Source: Burkholderiales bacterium
GTDB taxonomy: Bacteria > Pseudomonadota > Gammaproteobacteria > Burkholderiales > Burkholderiaceae_C
Assembly (NCBI GenBank): GCA_031403815.1
Contig: JANNGJ010000142.1
Span: 1-47,498, forward strand
Reading direction: 5' to 3'
Length of the DNA: 47,498 nt
Below, piece by piece: positions 29,048 through 40,895 of this stretch (positions are counted from its first letter, which is position 1; the number at the start of each line of letters is the position of its first letter). The notes under the pieces were generated by a model. The model saw only the letters and a program-made list of their open reading frames with translations, was not told where the DNA came from and ran no database searches. The translations under genes and the position numbers were made by a program.

Positions 29048-29716
29048 ATGACCCTCATCCTTGGCGGCTTTGCGCTGTCGAACTATGTCAACAAGGTCAA
29101 GCTCGTTCTGCTCGAGAAGGGCCTGCCCTTCACGGAGGAGCGCGTGGCCCCGGGTCACAAGCCCGACGACCTGCTGGCCGCGTCCCCTCTGGGCAAAGTG
29201 CCCTTCTTGCGCACCGAGCACGGCACGCTGTGCGAGAGCAGCGCGATCGTCGACTACCTCGAGGCGCTGGCACCCAGCCCCGCACTGTTGCCGGCCAACC
29301 CTTGGGCTGCGGCCAAGGTGCGCGAACTGGCGGTGTTCATTGACCTGCACCTCGAACTGGTAGCGCGTGAGATCTACCCACAGGCCTTCTTCGGCGGCAG
29401 CATCAGTGACAGCCAGAAGGCGCGCGTGCGCAAGCTGCTCGACAAGAACATCCTGGGCTTCAAGCAACTGGCAAAGTTTTCACCGTATGTGGCGGGCGAC
29501 ATGTTCACGCAGGCTGATTGCGCGGCCTACGTCTCGCTGCCGCTGGTGGCCCTGGCGAGCAAAATCGTTTATGGCGAAGACTTGCTGGCTGCCGGCGGTG
29601 TCGAATGGAAAGCCTACTGCGCGCTGATTGCGCAGCGCCCATCGGCGCAACGCGTCGACGCCGATCGAAAAGCAGACCAGGCGCGCTCGATCACAGCGGC
29701 CAGGGCCAAAGACTAG
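29048..29716 (+). CDS. glutathione S-transferase family protein
   Basis: 222-aa ORF. The N-terminal thioredoxin-like part has ...SPLGKVPFL....G..L.ES.AI.DYLE, followed by a helical C-terminal domain. Confidence 0.85.
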   Translation: MTLILGGFALSNYVNKVKLVLLEKGLPFTEERVAPGHKPDDLLAASPLGKVPFLRTEHGTLCESSAIVDYLEALAPSPALLPANPWAAAKVRELAVFIDLHLELVAREIYPQAFFGGSISDSQKARVRKLLDKNILGFKQLAKFSPYVAGDMFTQADCAAYVSLPLVALASKIVYGEDLLAAGGVEWKAYCALIAQRPSAQRVDADRKADQARSITAARAKD

Positions 29717-30632: not shown

Positions 30633-31547
30633 TCACACCGGCTCGCGGTCGTGCCAGGCGGTCAGTGCGGCCGTGATGTCACTCAAGCCGGACAGTACCT
30701 GCACGCCCTCGATCGCTCGGCGCTGTAGTACCGGCGCGCTGCCCCCGACCCAGACTTCCACGTGCGCAGGCAATTTAGCGCGCAATTCGGTGAGGCCCTC
30801 AGTGACCTGGTGCGGGTTGGTGCATCCGGTGTAGCTGAGCGCCACCACTTCACTGCGCAGGGCCGCCGCGGCACGGATGATGTCCCACACCGGTGTCTGC
30901 ACGCCCAGAGACGCGCAGCGGCAACCCTCGAGCGCCAAAATGGCCTCGGCCATCAACAAGCCCAAGCCGTGCGGCTCGCCCGGCACGGTGCCCAACAGCA
31001 CACGGGGGCGGCCGACACCGGCAGCCGGCAAGTGGTGCAAGGCATTGCGCAACACGACTTGCACAGATTCGGTATAGAGGTGCTCTTCAAAAACTTCGAG
31101 GCGGCCCTGCATCCACGCCTCACCCACTTGTGCATTCAGGGGCGCGACCACGTCGAGGACGAATCGGCCCAGGCCCATGCGCGCGAGGGCTCGCGCCATC
31201 ATGTCGCGCAGCAGTTCTACGTCGTGAAGGCGAATCGTCGCCATGAAGCCGCCCAGGTCGGGCGCAGCGCGAGCTTGCGCCTCGGGCGGGCGCGTCGGCT
31301 CGCGCAAGCCGCTGGCGCTCGAAAGCAGCTCGAGGTCGCCGGGCGCCATGGCGACGATGCGGCCTGGCCTATGGCCGGCATCAAGCAGGCGCTTGATGGT
31401 GCGCAGGCGCTCGACCTGCTCAAATGGGTAGCTGCGTTCACCCATGGCATCACGGTCCGGCAGCGGAAACCCGTAGCGGCGCTCCCAAATGCGCAAGGTG
31501 TCTTTGCTCAGCCCCGTGTCGCGCTCGACAGCCGATATCGACATCAT
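30633..31547 (-). CDS. carH: MerR-family, cobalamin-binding light-responsive transcriptional regulator (CarH/LitR type)
   Basis: ORF 30633..31718 trimmed to ATG 31547/31544. It has a MerR HTH (MSISAVERDTGLSKDTLRIWERRYGFP...YPFEQVERLRTIKRL). It has the helical-bundle motif W-x9-E-H (WMQGRLEVFEEH). It has the B12-binding motif set E-x-H-x-x-G ... S-x-L ... G-G (GEPHGLG ... VALSYT ... VGGSA). Confidence 0.85.
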   Translation of the reverse strand: MMSISAVERDTGLSKDTLRIWERRYGFPLPDRDAMGERSYPFEQVERLRTIKRLLDAGHRPGRIVAMAPGDLELLSSASGLREPTRPPEAQARAAPDLGGFMATIRLHDVELLRDMMARALARMGLGRFVLDVVAPLNAQVGEAWMQGRLEVFEEHLYTESVQVVLRNALHHLPAAGVGRPRVLLGTVPGEPHGLGLLMAEAILALEGCRCASLGVQTPVWDIIRAAAALRSEVVALSYTGCTNPHQVTEGLTELRAKLPAHVEVWVGGSAPVLQRRAIEGVQVLSGLSDITAALTAWHDREPV

Positions 31548-31672
31548 GATCGGTCGTGCCGTGAAGCTAGTTTGCACCTGCATCCCCTTGGCTGAATCTT
31601 GCGTAGACGCCCGGTGCGTGTTCGCCACAGGCCGTGACAGTGTAGGTAGAAACGACGTTCTGTACTGGACAA

Positions 31673-31686
31673 ATGTTGTGCAACAT
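31673..31686. promoter_or_regulatory. inverted repeat ATGTTG-TG-CAACAT, candidate regulator binding site in the carH / lipid-operon spacer
   Basis: 6+6 perfect inverted repeat read directly from the sequence. It shares the TGTTG/CAACA half-site with the repeat at 31731-31749. Confidence 0.35.
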
Positions 31687-31730
31687 GGGGATCGCTCTGG
31701 ATTCTTCGCCTTGTCCATGGAGAAATCGAT

Positions 31731-31749
31731 GTGTTGACATAGACAACAC
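31731..31749. promoter_or_regulatory. inverted repeat GTGTTG-N7-CAACAC overlapping the -35 box, candidate operator
   Basis: gtgttgacatagacaacac has outer 6+6 arms perfectly complementary, and the TTGACA -35 hexamer lies inside it. Confidence 0.4.
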
Positions 31750-31762
31750 TGGGTGGTAATAT
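31734..31762 (+). promoter_or_regulatory. near-consensus sigma70 promoter (TTGACA - 17 nt - TAATAT, with TG extended -10)
   Basis: TTGACA at 31734-31739, a 17-nt spacer, and TAATAT at 31757-31762 preceded by TGg at 31754-31756. It sits in a locally AT-richer stretch. Confidence 0.7.
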
Positions 31763-31920
31763 TCTATACTCCTTGGTTTAAGTTTGGTTGAGCTGCCGCC
31801 GATGTCACACCTCGTTGCAATCCTGTTGGGGGAACTTCATGCAGTGGCGGAGCTCCATGCCAAGGTATGGTTTTGCTTGCTGAGCGGCCTGCCAGTTCGT
31901 CTGGCTGCAATCTCCGAGCG

Positions 31921-31950
31921 CTTTTCCTCCTCCTCCCTCCCTCCCTCCTT
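31921..31950 (+). repeat. pure polypyrimidine compound microsatellite (CCT)3(CCCT)3-like mirror repeat
   Basis: cttttcctcctcctccctccctccctcctt contains no purine over 30 nt. cctccctccctccctcc is mirror-symmetric. Confidence 0.9.
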
Positions 31951-31985
31951 CGCTCGGGGGCGCCGCACGGCAACCTTTACTGCCA

Positions 31986-32020
31986 GGGGTACCGCTTCGC
32001 GCGGTACCCCTTTGTTTTTT
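31986..32020 (+). terminator. rho-independent terminator
   Basis: ggggtaccgc-ttcgc-gcggtacccc forms a 10-bp GC-rich stem followed by tttgtttttt. It ends 12 nt before the ATG at 32033. Confidence 0.8.
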
Positions 32021-32032
32021 CCGCGCTGAGCC

Positions 32033-33337
32033 ATGCGCCGCGTCGCAGTCATTGGCTCTGGCATCTCCGGCCTGTCCGTCGCCCACGGTTTGGCAGATGC
32101 GGCTCGGGTCACGCTGTTCGAGGCGGCGTCCTGGTTTGGCGGACACGCCCACACGGTCGATGTTCGGCTTGAGGGCATCCGGCATGGCGTCGACACCGGC
32201 TTCCTGGTTTTCAACGAGCGCACCTACCCCCAGCTGATCTCCCTGTTCGAGCGCCTTGGCGTCGACAGCGCAGCCTCAGAGATGTCGTTCTCGGTGCAAT
32301 CCCCTGCCACGGGCTGGGAATGGTGCGGCAGCGACTTGAACGGTGTCTTCGCTCAACGCCGCAACCTGGTGTCGCGACGCTTTCTGGGCATGCTGCTCGA
32401 CGTGGTGCGCTTCAACCGGCTGGCCACCGCCATCGCCGTTGGCCGCGGTGATGCCGAGCTCGACCAGCCCATCGGCGAGTTCCTGGACCAACACGCCTTT
32501 GGCTCTGACTTCCGCGAGGGCTACTTCCTGCCCATGATCGGCTGCGTCTGGTCCTGCCCTATCGAGCAGATGCTGCGCTTTCCGATCGGCACGATGATCC
32601 GCTTCTGCCACAACCACGGCTTGATTCAGTTGAGCAACAGGCCGCAGTGGCGCACCGTTCGCGGCGGCTCGCGGGCCTATGTCGCGAAGATGTTGGCCAG
32701 CATCCCGGACGCGCGCTTGGCAAGCCCTGTCCGTTCTGTTCAGCGCCTGCCACCCGGTGACGGCACGGCAGGCGTTGTCGTCGCCACGGACACGGGCAGC
32801 GAGAGATTCGACGACGTGGTGCTGGCCTGCCACAGCGACCAGGCGCTGGCGCTGCTGCGGGATGCCGGCCCCGAAGAACAGGCGGTCCTCGGGGCCATCC
32901 GCTACCACGCCAACCGCGCGGTCTTGCACACCGACACCACAGCGCTGCCGCGGCGCCAGCGCGCCTGGGCCGCGTGGAACTATGAGCGCGCGCCAGACCG
33001 CAGCCACGAGCAGGCCGGCGTGTGCCTGCATTACCTGATCAACCGGCTGCAACCGCTGCCCTGGAAGACGCCGGTGATCGTCTCGCTCAACCCACTGCGA
33101 CCGATCCGCGCCGACGCCGTGATCGGCGAGTGGGACTACAGCCACCCGGTGTTCGACCGTGCCGCGGTGCGGGCGCAAGCCCAGGTCCCTGCAATGCAGG
33201 GCCGCTCGCATGTCTGGTACGCGGGTGCCTGGACACGCTACGGTTTTCACGAGGATGGCCTGATGTCGGGGCTGGCAGTGGTGGCAGGCTTGCGTGCGAG
33301 TTGGGCCTTGCAAGGGGCCCGCGGGGTGGCGGCGTGA
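32033..33337 (+). CDS. NAD(P)/FAD-dependent oxidoreductase, amine-oxidase / phytoene-desaturase-like
   Basis: 434-aa ORF. MRRVAVIGSGISGLSVAH is a dinucleotide-binding fold, with ...GGHAHT... and a C-terminal ...YAGAWTRYGFHEDGL.... It is the first gene of the coupled operon. Confidence 0.8.
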   Translation: MRRVAVIGSGISGLSVAHGLADAARVTLFEAASWFGGHAHTVDVRLEGIRHGVDTGFLVFNERTYPQLISLFERLGVDSAASEMSFSVQSPATGWEWCGSDLNGVFAQRRNLVSRRFLGMLLDVVRFNRLATAIAVGRGDAELDQPIGEFLDQHAFGSDFREGYFLPMIGCVWSCPIEQMLRFPIGTMIRFCHNHGLIQLSNRPQWRTVRGGSRAYVAKMLASIPDARLASPVRSVQRLPPGDGTAGVVVATDTGSERFDDVVLACHSDQALALLRDAGPEEQAVLGAIRYHANRAVLHTDTTALPRRQRAWAAWNYERAPDRSHEQAGVCLHYLINRLQPLPWKTPVIVSLNPLRPIRADAVIGEWDYSHPVFDRAAVRAQAQVPAMQGRSHVWYAGAWTRYGFHEDGLMSGLAVVAGLRASWALQGARGVAA

Positions 33338-39016: not shown

Positions 39017-39472
39017 TCAGCGCTGACCTTCGGTCAGCGTGTCGAGTTGGAAGCGGCCGGACTTGTCGACCAGCCAGATCTCGGTGTACTTGACCTCGCC
39101 CATGCGTGCGGGCGGAGGAAACGGGCTGGCCTTCTTGATCATCTCGACCGCCCAAGGCCCGACTTCGGCCGCGGCGGGCTGGCGCACCACGCGCACATTC
39201 TTCACGGCGCCGTCGGCGGCAATCTCGGTTTCGATGATGGCAATGCCGTACAACAGGGGCGGCATCTTGCCCTTGTGAATCTGCTTGCCATAGGCCGCAT
39301 ACAGGTGCCGTGCGCCGTCGCTGCGGTACTCAAGCGCCGTTTCGGCAGCCGACTGGCGCTGGAAAGCGCCGCCCACCGGGGGCGTGGTCTTGAACTGCGC
39401 CTGGGTTGGCGTGGCGATGAGCCAGCCCGCCAGTGCCAGGGCGCCAAGGAGTGGGGTGCGTTGGAAGTTCAT
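39017..39472 (-). CDS. small exported protein with TonB C-terminal-like domain
   Basis: ORF 39017..39502 trimmed to ATG 39472. It has a signal peptide (MNFQRTPLLGALALAGWLIATPTQA). The C-terminal ...GIAIIETEIAADGAVKNVRVVRQP...AVEMIKKASPFPPPA resembles the TonB_C fold. Confidence 0.5.
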   Translation of the reverse strand: MNFQRTPLLGALALAGWLIATPTQAQFKTTPPVGGAFQRQSAAETALEYRSDGARHLYAAYGKQIHKGKMPPLLYGIAIIETEIAADGAVKNVRVVRQPAAAEVGPWAVEMIKKASPFPPPARMGEVKYTEIWLVDKSGRFQLDTLTEGQR

Positions 39473-39544
39473 GACTGGCAGTCTAGGCAGGGCCTGCGCC
39501 AAACACGCGTGAGCTTGTGCACGGCACCCCGTGCGTTCGTTTGG

Positions 39545-40507
39545 TTACCGCAGCCAGCCCTTGCGCCGGAAGTAGAACAAAGGCACCGCCACCGAGATGG
39601 CCATCAGGGCGATGGCAAACGGGTAGCCAAAGCGCCAGTCGAGCTCGGGCATGTTGCGAAAATTCATGCCGTACAGACTGGCAATCAGCGTCGGCGGCAG
39701 CAAGGCCACACTCGCCACCGAGAAGATCTTGATGATCTTGTTCTGGTTGATGTTGATGAAACCGACCGTGGCATCCAACAGGAAGTTGATCTTGTCGAAC
39801 AGGAATGCGGTGTGGCTGTCGAGTGAGTCGATGTCACGCAGGATCTGACGCGCCTCCTCGAACTGCTCGGCATTGAGCATGCGGCTGCGCATCATGAAGC
39901 TGACGGCACGGCGCGTGTCCATCACGTTGCGGCGGATGCGGCCGTTCAGGTCTTCTTCCTTGGCGATGGCTGCCAGCGCCGCGCCGGCCTGCTTGTCGTC
40001 AACGTCTTGCGTCAAGACGCCCGCGCCGACCGCTTCGAGCGCGTCGTAGATGCCCTCGAGCGCATCGGCACTGTATTCGGCGTCGGCGTCGTAGAGCTTG
40101 AGCAGCACGTCCTTGGCGTCTTCGATCAGCGCTGGAATGCGCCGCGCGCGCAAGCGCAGAAGGCGAAACACTGGCAGGTCTTCGGCATGCACCGAAAACA
40201 AGACCTGCTGGTACAGGATGAAGGCCGCGCGCACGTTGCGCGGCGTCACGTCGTCGTCGATCAGGAAGTCGGAGCGGATGTGCAACTCGCCGTTGTCTTC
40301 CTCGTAGAAGCGGGCTGACTCTTCCAGGTCATCGTCGACGATGTCGTCCGGGATGACGATGCCAAAGCGCGCCAGGACCCAGGCCTTCTCTTCGACCGTC
40401 GGTGACTCAAGATCGACCCAGACCGGGTGCACGTCGGCCAGCGCGGCAGCGCTGTCGATCTCTTCCTGAACCAGCCGGCCATTGACCAGTGTGAAGACAT
40501 TGAGCAT
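39545..40507 (-). CDS. corA: magnesium/cobalt transporter CorA
   Basis: ORF 39545..40672 trimmed to ATG 40507 (MLNVFTLVNG...). The C-terminal part has two TM segments with the YGMNF signature (ASLYGMNFRNMPEL). Confidence 0.9.
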   Translation of the reverse strand: MLNVFTLVNGRLVQEEIDSAAALADVHPVWVDLESPTVEEKAWVLARFGIVIPDDIVDDDLEESARFYEEDNGELHIRSDFLIDDDVTPRNVRAAFILYQQVLFSVHAEDLPVFRLLRLRARRIPALIEDAKDVLLKLYDADAEYSADALEGIYDALEAVGAGVLTQDVDDKQAGAALAAIAKEEDLNGRIRRNVMDTRRAVSFMMRSRMLNAEQFEEARQILRDIDSLDSHTAFLFDKINFLLDATVGFININQNKIIKIFSVASVALLPPTLIASLYGMNFRNMPELDWRFGYPFAIALMAISVAVPLFYFRRKGWLR

Positions 40508-40895
40508 TGAACGCGGCTCCAGCGCGGGACCGCGCAGCAGGCAAAGGGGTCGCGAGGCCCGTGCACCGCCGCAACCCGAGGCGCCATGACCACCGCCGTG
40601 GCCGCGGGGGCATCGAGCTGGAGGCCACCTGGGCAGACGCAACTCAAGGCGGTGGCCCTGGCCAAAGACCATCGATTATGGCACCGCACATCGACGTCAT
40701 TTGGTGTCAGTATCTGTTCATGCCGTTGTCGCAGCTGGTCACCATTCCGTCACTGAAAAGCTCCGACCCAGAGCCCGGCACATCTTGCCTTCGGCCGCCG
40801 TCAGGGCCACACTGAATCGGCTCCAGCCCCATCTCCCCCCGCAGTACCCCCACCCCCTACTGCATCTCTTGCCACCCGTCCCCAAGGAGGATTTG

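Follow-up and report, generated by a model that had tools for sequence, protein, structure and literature searches.

The 'cuckoo' small RNAs (sRNAs), CcsR1-4/RSs0680 of Rhodobacter sphaeroides and ar14/C14/NfeR1 of Sinorhizobium, carry the motif CCUCCUCCC in hairpin loops, are tied to an alternative stress sigma factor and are stress-linked (PMC4615179). The same motif, which resembles an anti-Shine-Dalgarno (anti-SD) sequence, occupies a hairpin loop in the RNA that is the subject here. It is specified by a 47,498-nucleotide (nt) stretch of DNA from a Burkholderiales bacterium (contig JANNGJ010000142.1 of assembly GCA_031403815.1); the whole of this stretch is referred to as the window, and coordinates are positions within it. 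On comparative sequence evidence the RNA is a conserved, structured family of Burkholderiales that is uncatalogued, with no match in Rfam. In the window its gene lies ahead of a membrane-lipid operon related to light and stress, and elsewhere it is found free of any such operon. Statements on expression throughout are derived from motifs and comparative patterns.

The likeness to the cuckoo sRNAs is in the anti-SD-like motif in a hairpin loop (window 31929-31937), in a link to an alternative stress sigma factor and to photo-oxidative or other stress, which in the present case is by promoter motif only, and in the mechanism, as the pairing with ribosome-binding sites that was proposed and studied for cuckoo/CcsR/NfeR1 would be the same here. 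The architecture is another matter. Cuckoo RNAs are alphaproteobacterial, are built of two to four adjacent simple hairpins of 24-50 nt with loops of 9-27 nt and no multiloop, and depend on RpoHI/HII, whereas the RNA from the window, of Burkholderiales, has a single motif hairpin whose 25-31-nt loop is presented by a three-way junction, and a GGAACTT-type promoter of the kind used by extracytoplasmic function (ECF) sigma factors. The cuckoo covariance models in Rfam leave the window unmatched, both at gathering scores and, for 31500-32300, at E≤10. Since no sequence homology to the cuckoo RNAs is detectable, the CCUCC-repeat loop is likely to have arisen convergently.

The Betaproteobacteria toxic small RNAs (tsRNAs, RF02278) are also a small RNA family of Burkholderiales, and of other Betaproteobacteria, and their pyrimidine-rich loops have been proposed to bind ribosome-binding sites. 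They are 57-92 nt long with several copies per genome, whereas the window RNA is larger, single-copy and tied to one syntenic position, and the RF02278 model has no match in the window at E≤10. With the sigma-E-dependent sRNAs RybB, MicA, MicL and VrrA of enterobacteria and Vibrio it shares the position of its gene directly behind an RpoE-type promoter, GAACTT-N16/17-TCnnA, which by analogy hints at an envelope-stress sigma regulon with a non-coding arm for repression. The likeness is in promoter logic only, with no similarity in sequence or structure, and sigma dependence of the window RNA is motif-based. Sigma-E sRNAs use 5'-end seeds against outer membrane protein or lipoprotein mRNAs, unlike the internal loop rich in C and U (the CU loop) that is the candidate seed of the window RNA.

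Leaders with two outputs, or coupled to the gene that follows, include the riboswitch-terminated SreA/B of Listeria, the proline-codon leaders mgtL/mgtP of Salmonella and tnaC-rut. As in these, one piece of DNA would give both a terminated short RNA and an operon leader, and an open reading frame (ORF) with proline codons comes upstream of a structured region and a C-rich tract. Unlike these, the window RNA has its own internal promoter and exists operon-free in some genomes, and the upstream ORF (uORF) is of 75-130 codons, encodes a peptide that is not conserved and ends at the start codon of the first gene. By analogy, the combination may be described as a stress-sigma-driven sRNA with a C/U-rich anti-SD loop that is, unusually, embedded in a translated operon leader.

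The conserved RNA domain

Homology to the product of the first operon gene, an oxidoreductase, was used to retrieve 80 species loci of 7 kb (given L numbers where they need to be told apart). A covariance model of the RNA domain, R1, has a single match in each of 62 of these loci, in every case 50-170 nt upstream of the oxidoreductase gene and on its strand, and it also finds the domain in seven further, orphan contigs. By scans with the model and with the CU tract, neither the window nor the 7-kb loci have a further copy. Carriers span Rubrivivax, Rhizobacter, Piscinibacter, Caldimonas, Ideonella, Aquincola, Variovorax, Xenophilus, Paucibacter and Albitalea, and cultured ones exist, for instance the polyethylene terephthalate (PET)-degrading Piscinibacter (Ideonella) sakaiensis 201-F6; the closest relatives of the window are uncultured Burkholderiales with an oxidoreductase 78-79% identical to its own. 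The loci are related phylogenetically, and slid-partner controls and non-redundant subsets were applied where possible. A weak match to the model in L025 (2840-2959; 20 bits, E=0.003), at the element's usual position, may be a decayed copy.

The conserved core is a three-way junction of about 110 nt in which helix P1 encloses hairpins P2 and P3, the latter closing the CU loop (Table 1). Its conserved unpaired parts are a GUUUU stretch 5' of P1, the junction sequence CUGMAAUCC, GGGCGC after P3 and a CUUU-rich spacer (CUUUAC) after P1. Compensatory changes occur in 22 of the 26 base pairs: nine of 11 in P1, with 95% of cells paired, all five in P2, with 79% paired, and eight of ten in P3, with 94% paired. 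Over all helices 91.5-91.8% of cells are paired (91.5% in a MAFFT alignment), as against 38-53% with partners slid, and none of 500 shuffles matches the observed values; the same helix support comes from 67 sequences aligned to the covariance model. The length of the P2 loop is variable, and P2 itself is longer in one orphan. G-U pairs number 124 and A-C pairs 20, an excess which places the RNA on the + strand, that of the operon. An RNA of 165 nt (31858-32022), beginning a few nt ahead of the start expected from the promoter motif, folds into P1-P2-P3 plus the terminator with -65.8 kcal/mol (z=-4.09), and none of 200 shuffled versions is as stable. This stability, the CU loop predicted to be unpaired and the U-rich spacer ahead of the hairpin or terminator are sRNA-like traits. 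Rfam yields zero matches at gathering scores across the whole window, and for 31500-32300 at E≤10 just two chance-level matches to unrelated eukaryotic families.

An earlier, sequence-only reading of the window had pictured a self-contained unit of about 250 nt running from a sigma70 promoter to a strong terminator 12 nt before the first ATG, with a short hairpin (P2) and a 30-nt CU-rich loop closed by a stem, and had not recognised it as any known RNA family. These components are all there. The extent of the unit needs revision, as the conserved part is the junction of about 110 nt that comes just after an ECF promoter; neither that promoter nor P1 figured in the earlier description. It had put forward three helices for a covariation check, from which the short hairpin and the CU-loop stem emerge well supported. 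The third, a long 5' hairpin (31771-31865), is unsupported even in the four closest relatives, with a consensus energy of -2.3 kcal/mol, and the conserved blocks within it, GTTGCAA, GGGAACT and TCCATG, are promoter-like. Nor can the interval be said to have no credible ORF: one of 75 codons spans it, and the existence of that ORF is conserved, its peptide not.

The CU loop is predicted by folding to be unpaired. Besides CCUCCUCCC it holds several overlapping CCUCC anti-SD-like units. Across loci its length is 25-31 nt and its sequence nearly invariant between genera; about 20 positions stay nearly invariant across genera with proteins that are some 65% identical. CCUCCUCCC is kept in most of the 62 element-bearing loci, a few having shortened tracts, and the units come in either of two orders, (UCC)3-4(UCCC)3 or UCC-UCC-UCCC-UCC-UCCC-UCCC. 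The 20-nt core of the tract occurs once in the window, where 0.01 chance matches are expected, and neither the window nor any locus has a second CU tract. No conserved purine-rich partner in cis was found on the RNA strand within about 3 kb. Pairing in cis, of anti-SD or antiterminator kind, was considered and rejected: RNAduplex of the CU loop with the downstream leader gave inconsistent partners, and the window has no G-rich ribosome-binding site there. Duplex energies of the loop with the start regions of the window's genes are unremarkable, the start-codon calls there being uncertain.

Table 1. Features of the window at and around the RNA
Feature	Position	Strand	Details
LitR/CarH-like regulator, MerR helix-turn-helix (HTH) and B12-binding	30633..31550	-	Pfam; divergent; context, outside the RNA
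Sigma70-type promoter	31734..31762	+	-35 TTGACA 31734-31739; 17-nt spacer; TG 31754-31755; -10 TAATAT 31757-31762
uORF, 75 codons (MSHLVAILLGELH...SSSSLPPSFARGRR...PLFFPR*)	31802..32029	+	Translation; TGA 3 nt before the first-gene ATG
Putative internal ECF (RpoE/AlgU-type) promoter	31831..31858	+	-35 GGAACTT 31831-31837; 16-nt spacer; -10 TCCAT 31854-31858
Conserved structured RNA domain	31870..31989	+	Covariance model R1 match; 113.7 bits, E=1e-32
P1 5' strand UGCUGAGCGGC	31878..31888	+	Pairs with 31962-31972
P2 hairpin GCCAG-UUCGU-CUGGC	31891..31905	+	Stem 31891-31895/31901-31905
P3 hairpin	31911..31960	+	Stem 31911-31920/31951-31960, closing the CU loop
CU-rich loop, 30 nt, CUUUUCCUCCUCCUCCCUCCCUCCCUCCUU	31921..31950	+	Loop of P3
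P1 3' strand GCCGCACGGCA	31962..31972	+	Helix 1
Intrinsic terminator	31985..32020	+	11-bp stem (8 GC pairs, 31985-32011), 5-nt loop, then UUGUUUUUU
First operon gene, flavin adenine dinucleotide (FAD) amine-oxidase-like oxidoreductase (RSP1091/UfaD-like)	32033..33337	+	Pfam

The putative internal promoter and the stand-alone copies

The published consensus for RpoE/AlgU promoters is GAACTT-N16/17-TCCAAA (PMC4336711), and the motif ahead of the RNA fits it and not the TGATCC-N16-CGTA of sigma-E/ChrR, of which none was apparent on inspecting the aligned upstream regions, a formal pattern scan not being part of that inspection. GGAACYY-N16-TCnnN is present upstream of the element in 49 of the 62 operon-linked loci and its N17 version in five, giving 54 of 62, and the motif is found with all seven orphan copies, against a background of seven in 1206 segments. 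An RpoE-type promoter motif directly upstream of the RNA, the mark of the RpoE/AlgU-dependent sRNA class, is accordingly a feature of both linked (54/62) and orphan (7/7) copies. In linked loci the -10 box is 22-115 nt from a reference point just inside P1, and, since the motif falls in different uORF frames between loci, it is a DNA-level signal. For the window, transcription would be expected to start near 31865.

A GTTGCAA (or TGCAA) block is conserved 8-15 nt upstream of the ECF -35 (window 31814-31820, L001-L006, L016 and others). The orphans share GCAATCTAGGGGG instead, some 30-50 nt upstream of the -35. Either block may serve as a site for an activator or extend the promoter.

The orphans came to light through a scan of metagenomes with the bare CU pattern, in which one of 80 loci, L160, had a true element, the rest being mostly unrelated low-complexity DNA. 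In L160 a full-scoring element (110.7 bits) with its ECF motif lies between a GST (glutathione S-transferase) gene and a convergent TonB_C-like gene, orthologues of the window genes at 29048-29716 and 39017-39502. Homologues of its TonB_C-like protein led to further orphans, and as L204 duplicates L203 there are seven distinct orphan loci including L160. Their order (L160, L201-L207) is CorA, TonB_C-like, the element on the opposite strand, an optional ORF of about 570 amino acids (aa), GST and RuvB. These contigs have no LitR, diiron gene or operon and no co-directional gene downstream of the element, and no consistent uORF is found in them.

With R1 the orphans score 99-115 bits, and GGAACTT/A-N17-TCAGA, TCACA or TCATA is 83-99 nt upstream. 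The TonB_C-like proteins encoded beside them share 66-100% identity with the L160 protein; two more-distant homologues belong to loci with the operon-linked arrangement seen in the window. Among the orphans the RNA domain is on average 87% identical, as against 59-60% for the 60-nt flanks. The keeping of promoter and RNA without a downstream gene, between flanks that are far less conserved, points to an autonomous non-coding RNA gene, and, judging from this conservation, a promoter-plus-RNA module is maintained without any gene to lead into. The optional ORF is a called gene of 571-579 aa without a Pfam match, between GST and the RNA, in L201 (4873-6612), L202 (2901-4616) and L203 (4832-6553), and is absent from L205-L207.

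The operon leader and the proposed role of the RNA

Where the operon is present, the uORF runs through the ECF promoter and the RNA domain and on through the terminator. Its stop, mostly TGA, overlaps the oxidoreductase start or is at most 13 nt from it in 53-54 of 63 loci. The frame of that stop is open across the element in 52 of 53 loci, when 33.7 would be expected (P<5e-6), and in 16 of 17 loci with dissimilar spacers, when 10.3 would be (P=2e-4). Of 46 loci, 36 have an ATG in this frame 8-80 nt ahead of the ECF -35, as against seven and five for the other two frames, and from all 36 the frame is open to the stop. The nearness of stop and start, with an open frame from a conserved start, is what marks a translationally coupled uORF. 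There is no Shine-Dalgarno (SD) sequence at the first-gene start in the window (CCGCGCUGAGCCAUG), and the SD core is absent in 50 of 60 element-bearing loci; its presence (10/60 with the element, 4/18 without) does not discriminate between the two groups.

The peptide is a different matter. A small protein or leader peptide of conserved sequence is ruled out by the even distribution of substitutions over codon positions (263/238/238 upstream, 45/58/65 downstream), by indels that are mostly not multiples of three, those of 1, 2 and 4 nt being common, and by clades that differ in frame, one of them reading the same aligned RNA as LLPPPSL and not SSSSLPPS. Selection appears, from these patterns, to act on translation across the leader and not on the peptide product. 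Inspection for a conserved short ORF beginning after the ECF start site gave no conserved start codon, and an NUG at the start of P1 is in frame in one clade only.

The CU tract gives consecutive prolines in every frame (SSSSLPPS, LLPPPSL, PPPPSLP), including a CCU codon, which is expected to be rare in such GC-rich genomes, and whatever its frame a uORF ribosome would meet there a potential pause dependent on elongation factor P (EF-P). In the element-less loci L015, L018, L024, L025, L044 and L077 a TGA is also found a few nt upstream of the oxidoreductase start. The open frames that it ends are mostly short, with 22-32 codons in three loci and 82-93 in the remaining ones; a proper SD, AAGGAG, is present in L015 and L044. 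Coupling with an ORF upstream may be older than the RNA or independent of it.

In most of 61 loci the CUUU spacer leads into a stable GC hairpin, whose sequence is not conserved and which in many ends within about 10 nt of the start codon. In the window, TTGTTTTTT is the 3' flank of its stem, its end is 12 nt before the ATG at 32033, and the operon is reachable only by transcribing through the RNA and the terminator. A U tract, making the hairpin a canonical terminator, is present in only about 11 of the 61, namely the window clade and a few others. Neither the CU loop nor P1 showed a consistent, mutually exclusive antiterminator pairing with the hairpin, and the conserved intrinsic terminator plus antiterminator by which an attenuator or riboswitch leader is recognised is lacking.

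The interpretation favoured, with about an even chance of being correct, is that the RNA is an ECF-driven sRNA of anti-SD type that acts in trans and has been co-opted into a translated operon leader. The ECF transcript (about 31865-32020, some 155 nt) would be untranslated and fold into the domain, with the hairpin ending or stabilising it. Its single-stranded loop would pair in trans with GGAG-rich ribosome-binding sites of candidate target mRNAs, so repressing or remodelling their translation under envelope or oxidative stress; it would share its mechanism with the alphaproteobacterial CcsR/NfeR1 cuckoo sRNAs and its regulatory logic with the enterobacterial sigma-E-dependent sRNAs. From an upstream promoter (in the window perhaps the sigma70 one beside LitR) a longer transcript carrying the uORF would be made, and ribosomes on the uORF would melt the RNA domain and the terminator, permitting read-through and translational coupling to the SD-less first gene. 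One stretch of DNA would then have two outputs, with one promoter giving an sRNA and the other the mRNA of the operon.

The sequence-only reading had offered a choice between a trans-acting sRNA and a leader gating the operon. The former gains from the seven stand-alone copies, and the latter was right in part, in that the operon is reached only through the RNA and its terminator. Its further suggestion, that the RNA could be an arm of the light response, survives as an indirect link at most: LitR homologues are near the element in only about 36 of the 80 loci, and the promoter belonging to the RNA itself is an envelope-stress one of sigma-E type, neither a LitR nor a sigma-E/ChrR one.

Several considerations count against a trans-acting sRNA within a translated leader. 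The trans-acting step is purely an inference from anatomy and analogy. The invariant loop of 25-31 nt is longer and stricter than a simple anti-SD seed needs, and would fit the binding of a protein or of another conserved RNA as well. In about 50 of the 61 operon-linked loci the hairpin is without a U tract, and in these it would take processing or weak termination to produce a discrete short RNA. The ECF assignment is by motif only, and the -10 in the window is TCCAT, not TCnnA. In the window the uORF start has no obvious SD, and translation of the uORF is deduced from comparative statistics only. The genomes with orphans, for their part, could carry the operon, or a second RNA copy, elsewhere.

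The main rival is an autonomous RNA that binds protein and not ribosome-binding sites, the multivalent CU loop with its five to six overlapping CCUCC/UCCC units being a sponge or landing pad for Rho, ribosomal protein S1, a KH-domain or cold-shock protein, or a factor recognising the CCUCC 3' end of 16S rRNA. The loop is indeed far longer and more invariant than a typical seed, what varies in it is only the order of UCC and UCCC, which suggests that repeated short motifs are what matters, and it is presented by a conserved three-way junction in an RNA whose autonomy the orphans show. This explanation is nonetheless considered unlikely. The orphan neighbourhood (GST, TonB_C-like, CorA, RuvB) contains no candidate protein, the known protein-sponge RNAs of bacteria use GGA or CA motifs and not CU, and the loop motif is identical to that of base-pairing sRNAs that have been studied experimentally.

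Less probable again is a purely cis-acting leader or attenuator of the lipid operon, with no trans role, in which the CU tract would be a Rho utilisation (rut) site or a proline ribosome-pause site and uORF translation would decide access to the operon. A G-free C-rich tract is Rho's preferred substrate, and the CU tract is one. The position of the element upstream of the first gene and on its strand in 62 of 62 operon-linked loci, the solid statistics of uORF start and stop, the absence of an SD at the first gene and the window terminator 12 nt before the ATG are all as this explanation would have them. It explains the uORF well and the orphans not. Seven orphans keep promoter and domain with no co-directional gene or uORF, when a pure leader should decay; rut and pause sites normally need neither a covarying three-way junction nor invariance at the nucleotide level; and a U-tract terminator occurs in only about 11 of 61 loci, with no antiterminator pairing or purine partner in cis found.

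That the leader is riboswitch-like, with the junction (CUGMAAUCC, GGGCGC) as aptamer and the hairpin as expression platform, is very improbable. Covarying helices around a conserved junction, with a hairpin after them and then a metabolic operon, do recall such an arrangement, but the orphans have no gene to control, the hairpin sequence is not conserved, no pairing of it mutually exclusive with P1 was found, conservation is highest in an unstructured loop of 30 nt, not a typical trait of aptamers, and there is no Rfam riboswitch match. Scarcely credible is a small protein (75 aa in the window) with the structure as a by-product of coding, or a CU tract that is a chance microsatellite or a DNA element (H-DNA, antisense G-quadruplex), since the ORF with its conserved start and stop positions and the polypyrimidine/polypurine repeat with GGG runs on the other strand have to be set against the even codon-position substitutions, non-triplet indels and clade-dependent frames, the orphans without an ORF, the covariation of three helices with a G-U excess that points to + strand RNA, and a tract invariant in length and sequence.

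To return to the ECF-driven, trans-acting sRNA, a bolder form of it, which is tentative and somewhat doubtful, would have the RNA as the first RpoE/AlgU-type envelope-stress sRNA family described for Burkholderiales, with a multivalent anti-SD loop, whose gene and terminator have in most genomes been made into an operon leader by a ribosome on a uORF of irrelevant sequence, the stress promoter giving the sRNA and a light-controlled promoter the lipid-remodelling mRNA. To our knowledge almost no regulatory RNAs have been characterised in the group comprising Rubrivivax, Rhizobacter, Piscinibacter, Caldimonas, Variovorax and relatives. If the interpretation is right, this large and environmentally abundant group would acquire a covariation-backed RNA family, and there would be a candidate non-coding arm of an ECF stress regulon outside enterobacteria. 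The CCUCC-repeat anti-SD loop of alphaproteobacterial photo-oxidative stress would then recur, probably convergently, beside the beta-proteobacterial counterpart of a singlet-oxygen lipid operon. A uORF with a non-conserved peptide that runs through an sRNA gene to stop at an SD-less gene start, with two outputs from one locus, would be an unusual arrangement.

Gene neighbourhood and upstream motifs

After the oxidoreductase gene the operon continues on the + strand with genes whose products are identified by Pfam as DUF1365, cyclopropane fatty acid (CFA)-synthase-like, Chalcone_3-like, MFS_2, DUF3833 and SDR (short-chain dehydrogenase/reductase), in that order. The oxidoreductase, SDR and CFA-synthase types correspond to members of the singlet-oxygen core regulon of Rhodobacter and Pseudomonas syringae, the promoters of which are sigma-E/ChrR ones, TGATCC-N16-CGTA (PMC5507510), and work on furan fatty acids (PMC7380195) has DUF1365 alongside such genes. 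Upstream of the RNA the minus strand holds, in addition to the LitR/CarH-like gene, one for a diiron desaturase-like protein, which is 80-92% identical across genera. In many loci (L005, L014, L019, L027, L037, L038, L045, L049, L056 and L073) the + strand carries a glutathione peroxidase gene whose end is just short of the operator/promoter region, some 100-300 nt upstream of P1. Glutathione peroxidase, the conserved GST and the diiron gene together point to an oxidative-stress neighbourhood. The CorA and TonB_C-like pair (window 39017-40672; L201-L209) is a stable synteny anchor, adjoining the RNA in orphan contigs and otherwise the 3' end of the lipid operon. The window differs from the orphans in that its RNA is flanked on one side by the diiron gene and LitR and on the other by the operon of seven genes.

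The sigma70-type promoter scores 10 of 12, and a scan of the window gives two promoter-like sites when 0.3 are expected from shuffles. By a regular-expression scan its TTGACA is common only to the closest relative, L001. It is possibly the upstream promoter of the long transcript, and possibly controlled by LitR. As a class II LitR operator of the Pseudomonas kind, T(G/A)TACA-N12-TGTA(C/T)A, the best candidate was TGTCCA-N12-TGTGTT at 31712-31735, which was rejected with three mismatches, the window having seven matches of this kind and 5.8 being expected; this LitR-like site abuts the sigma70 -35 and is the only such site near the promoter. A palindromic AT-rich operator-like motif (e.g. GACTGATCGGTTATATTTAATACCAATCAGTCA), centred on a -10-like TATATT, lies about 100-170 nt upstream of P1 in L009, L011, L012, L014, L016, L017, L029, L031, L037, L055, L058, L060 and others, the equivalent region of the window being 31734-31790. 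It does not match the class II LitR consensus, and it is probably the operator/promoter of a regulator shared by the divergent diiron gene and the operon. The 'ccATG' with which the uORF starts comes 10-14 nt after this motif.

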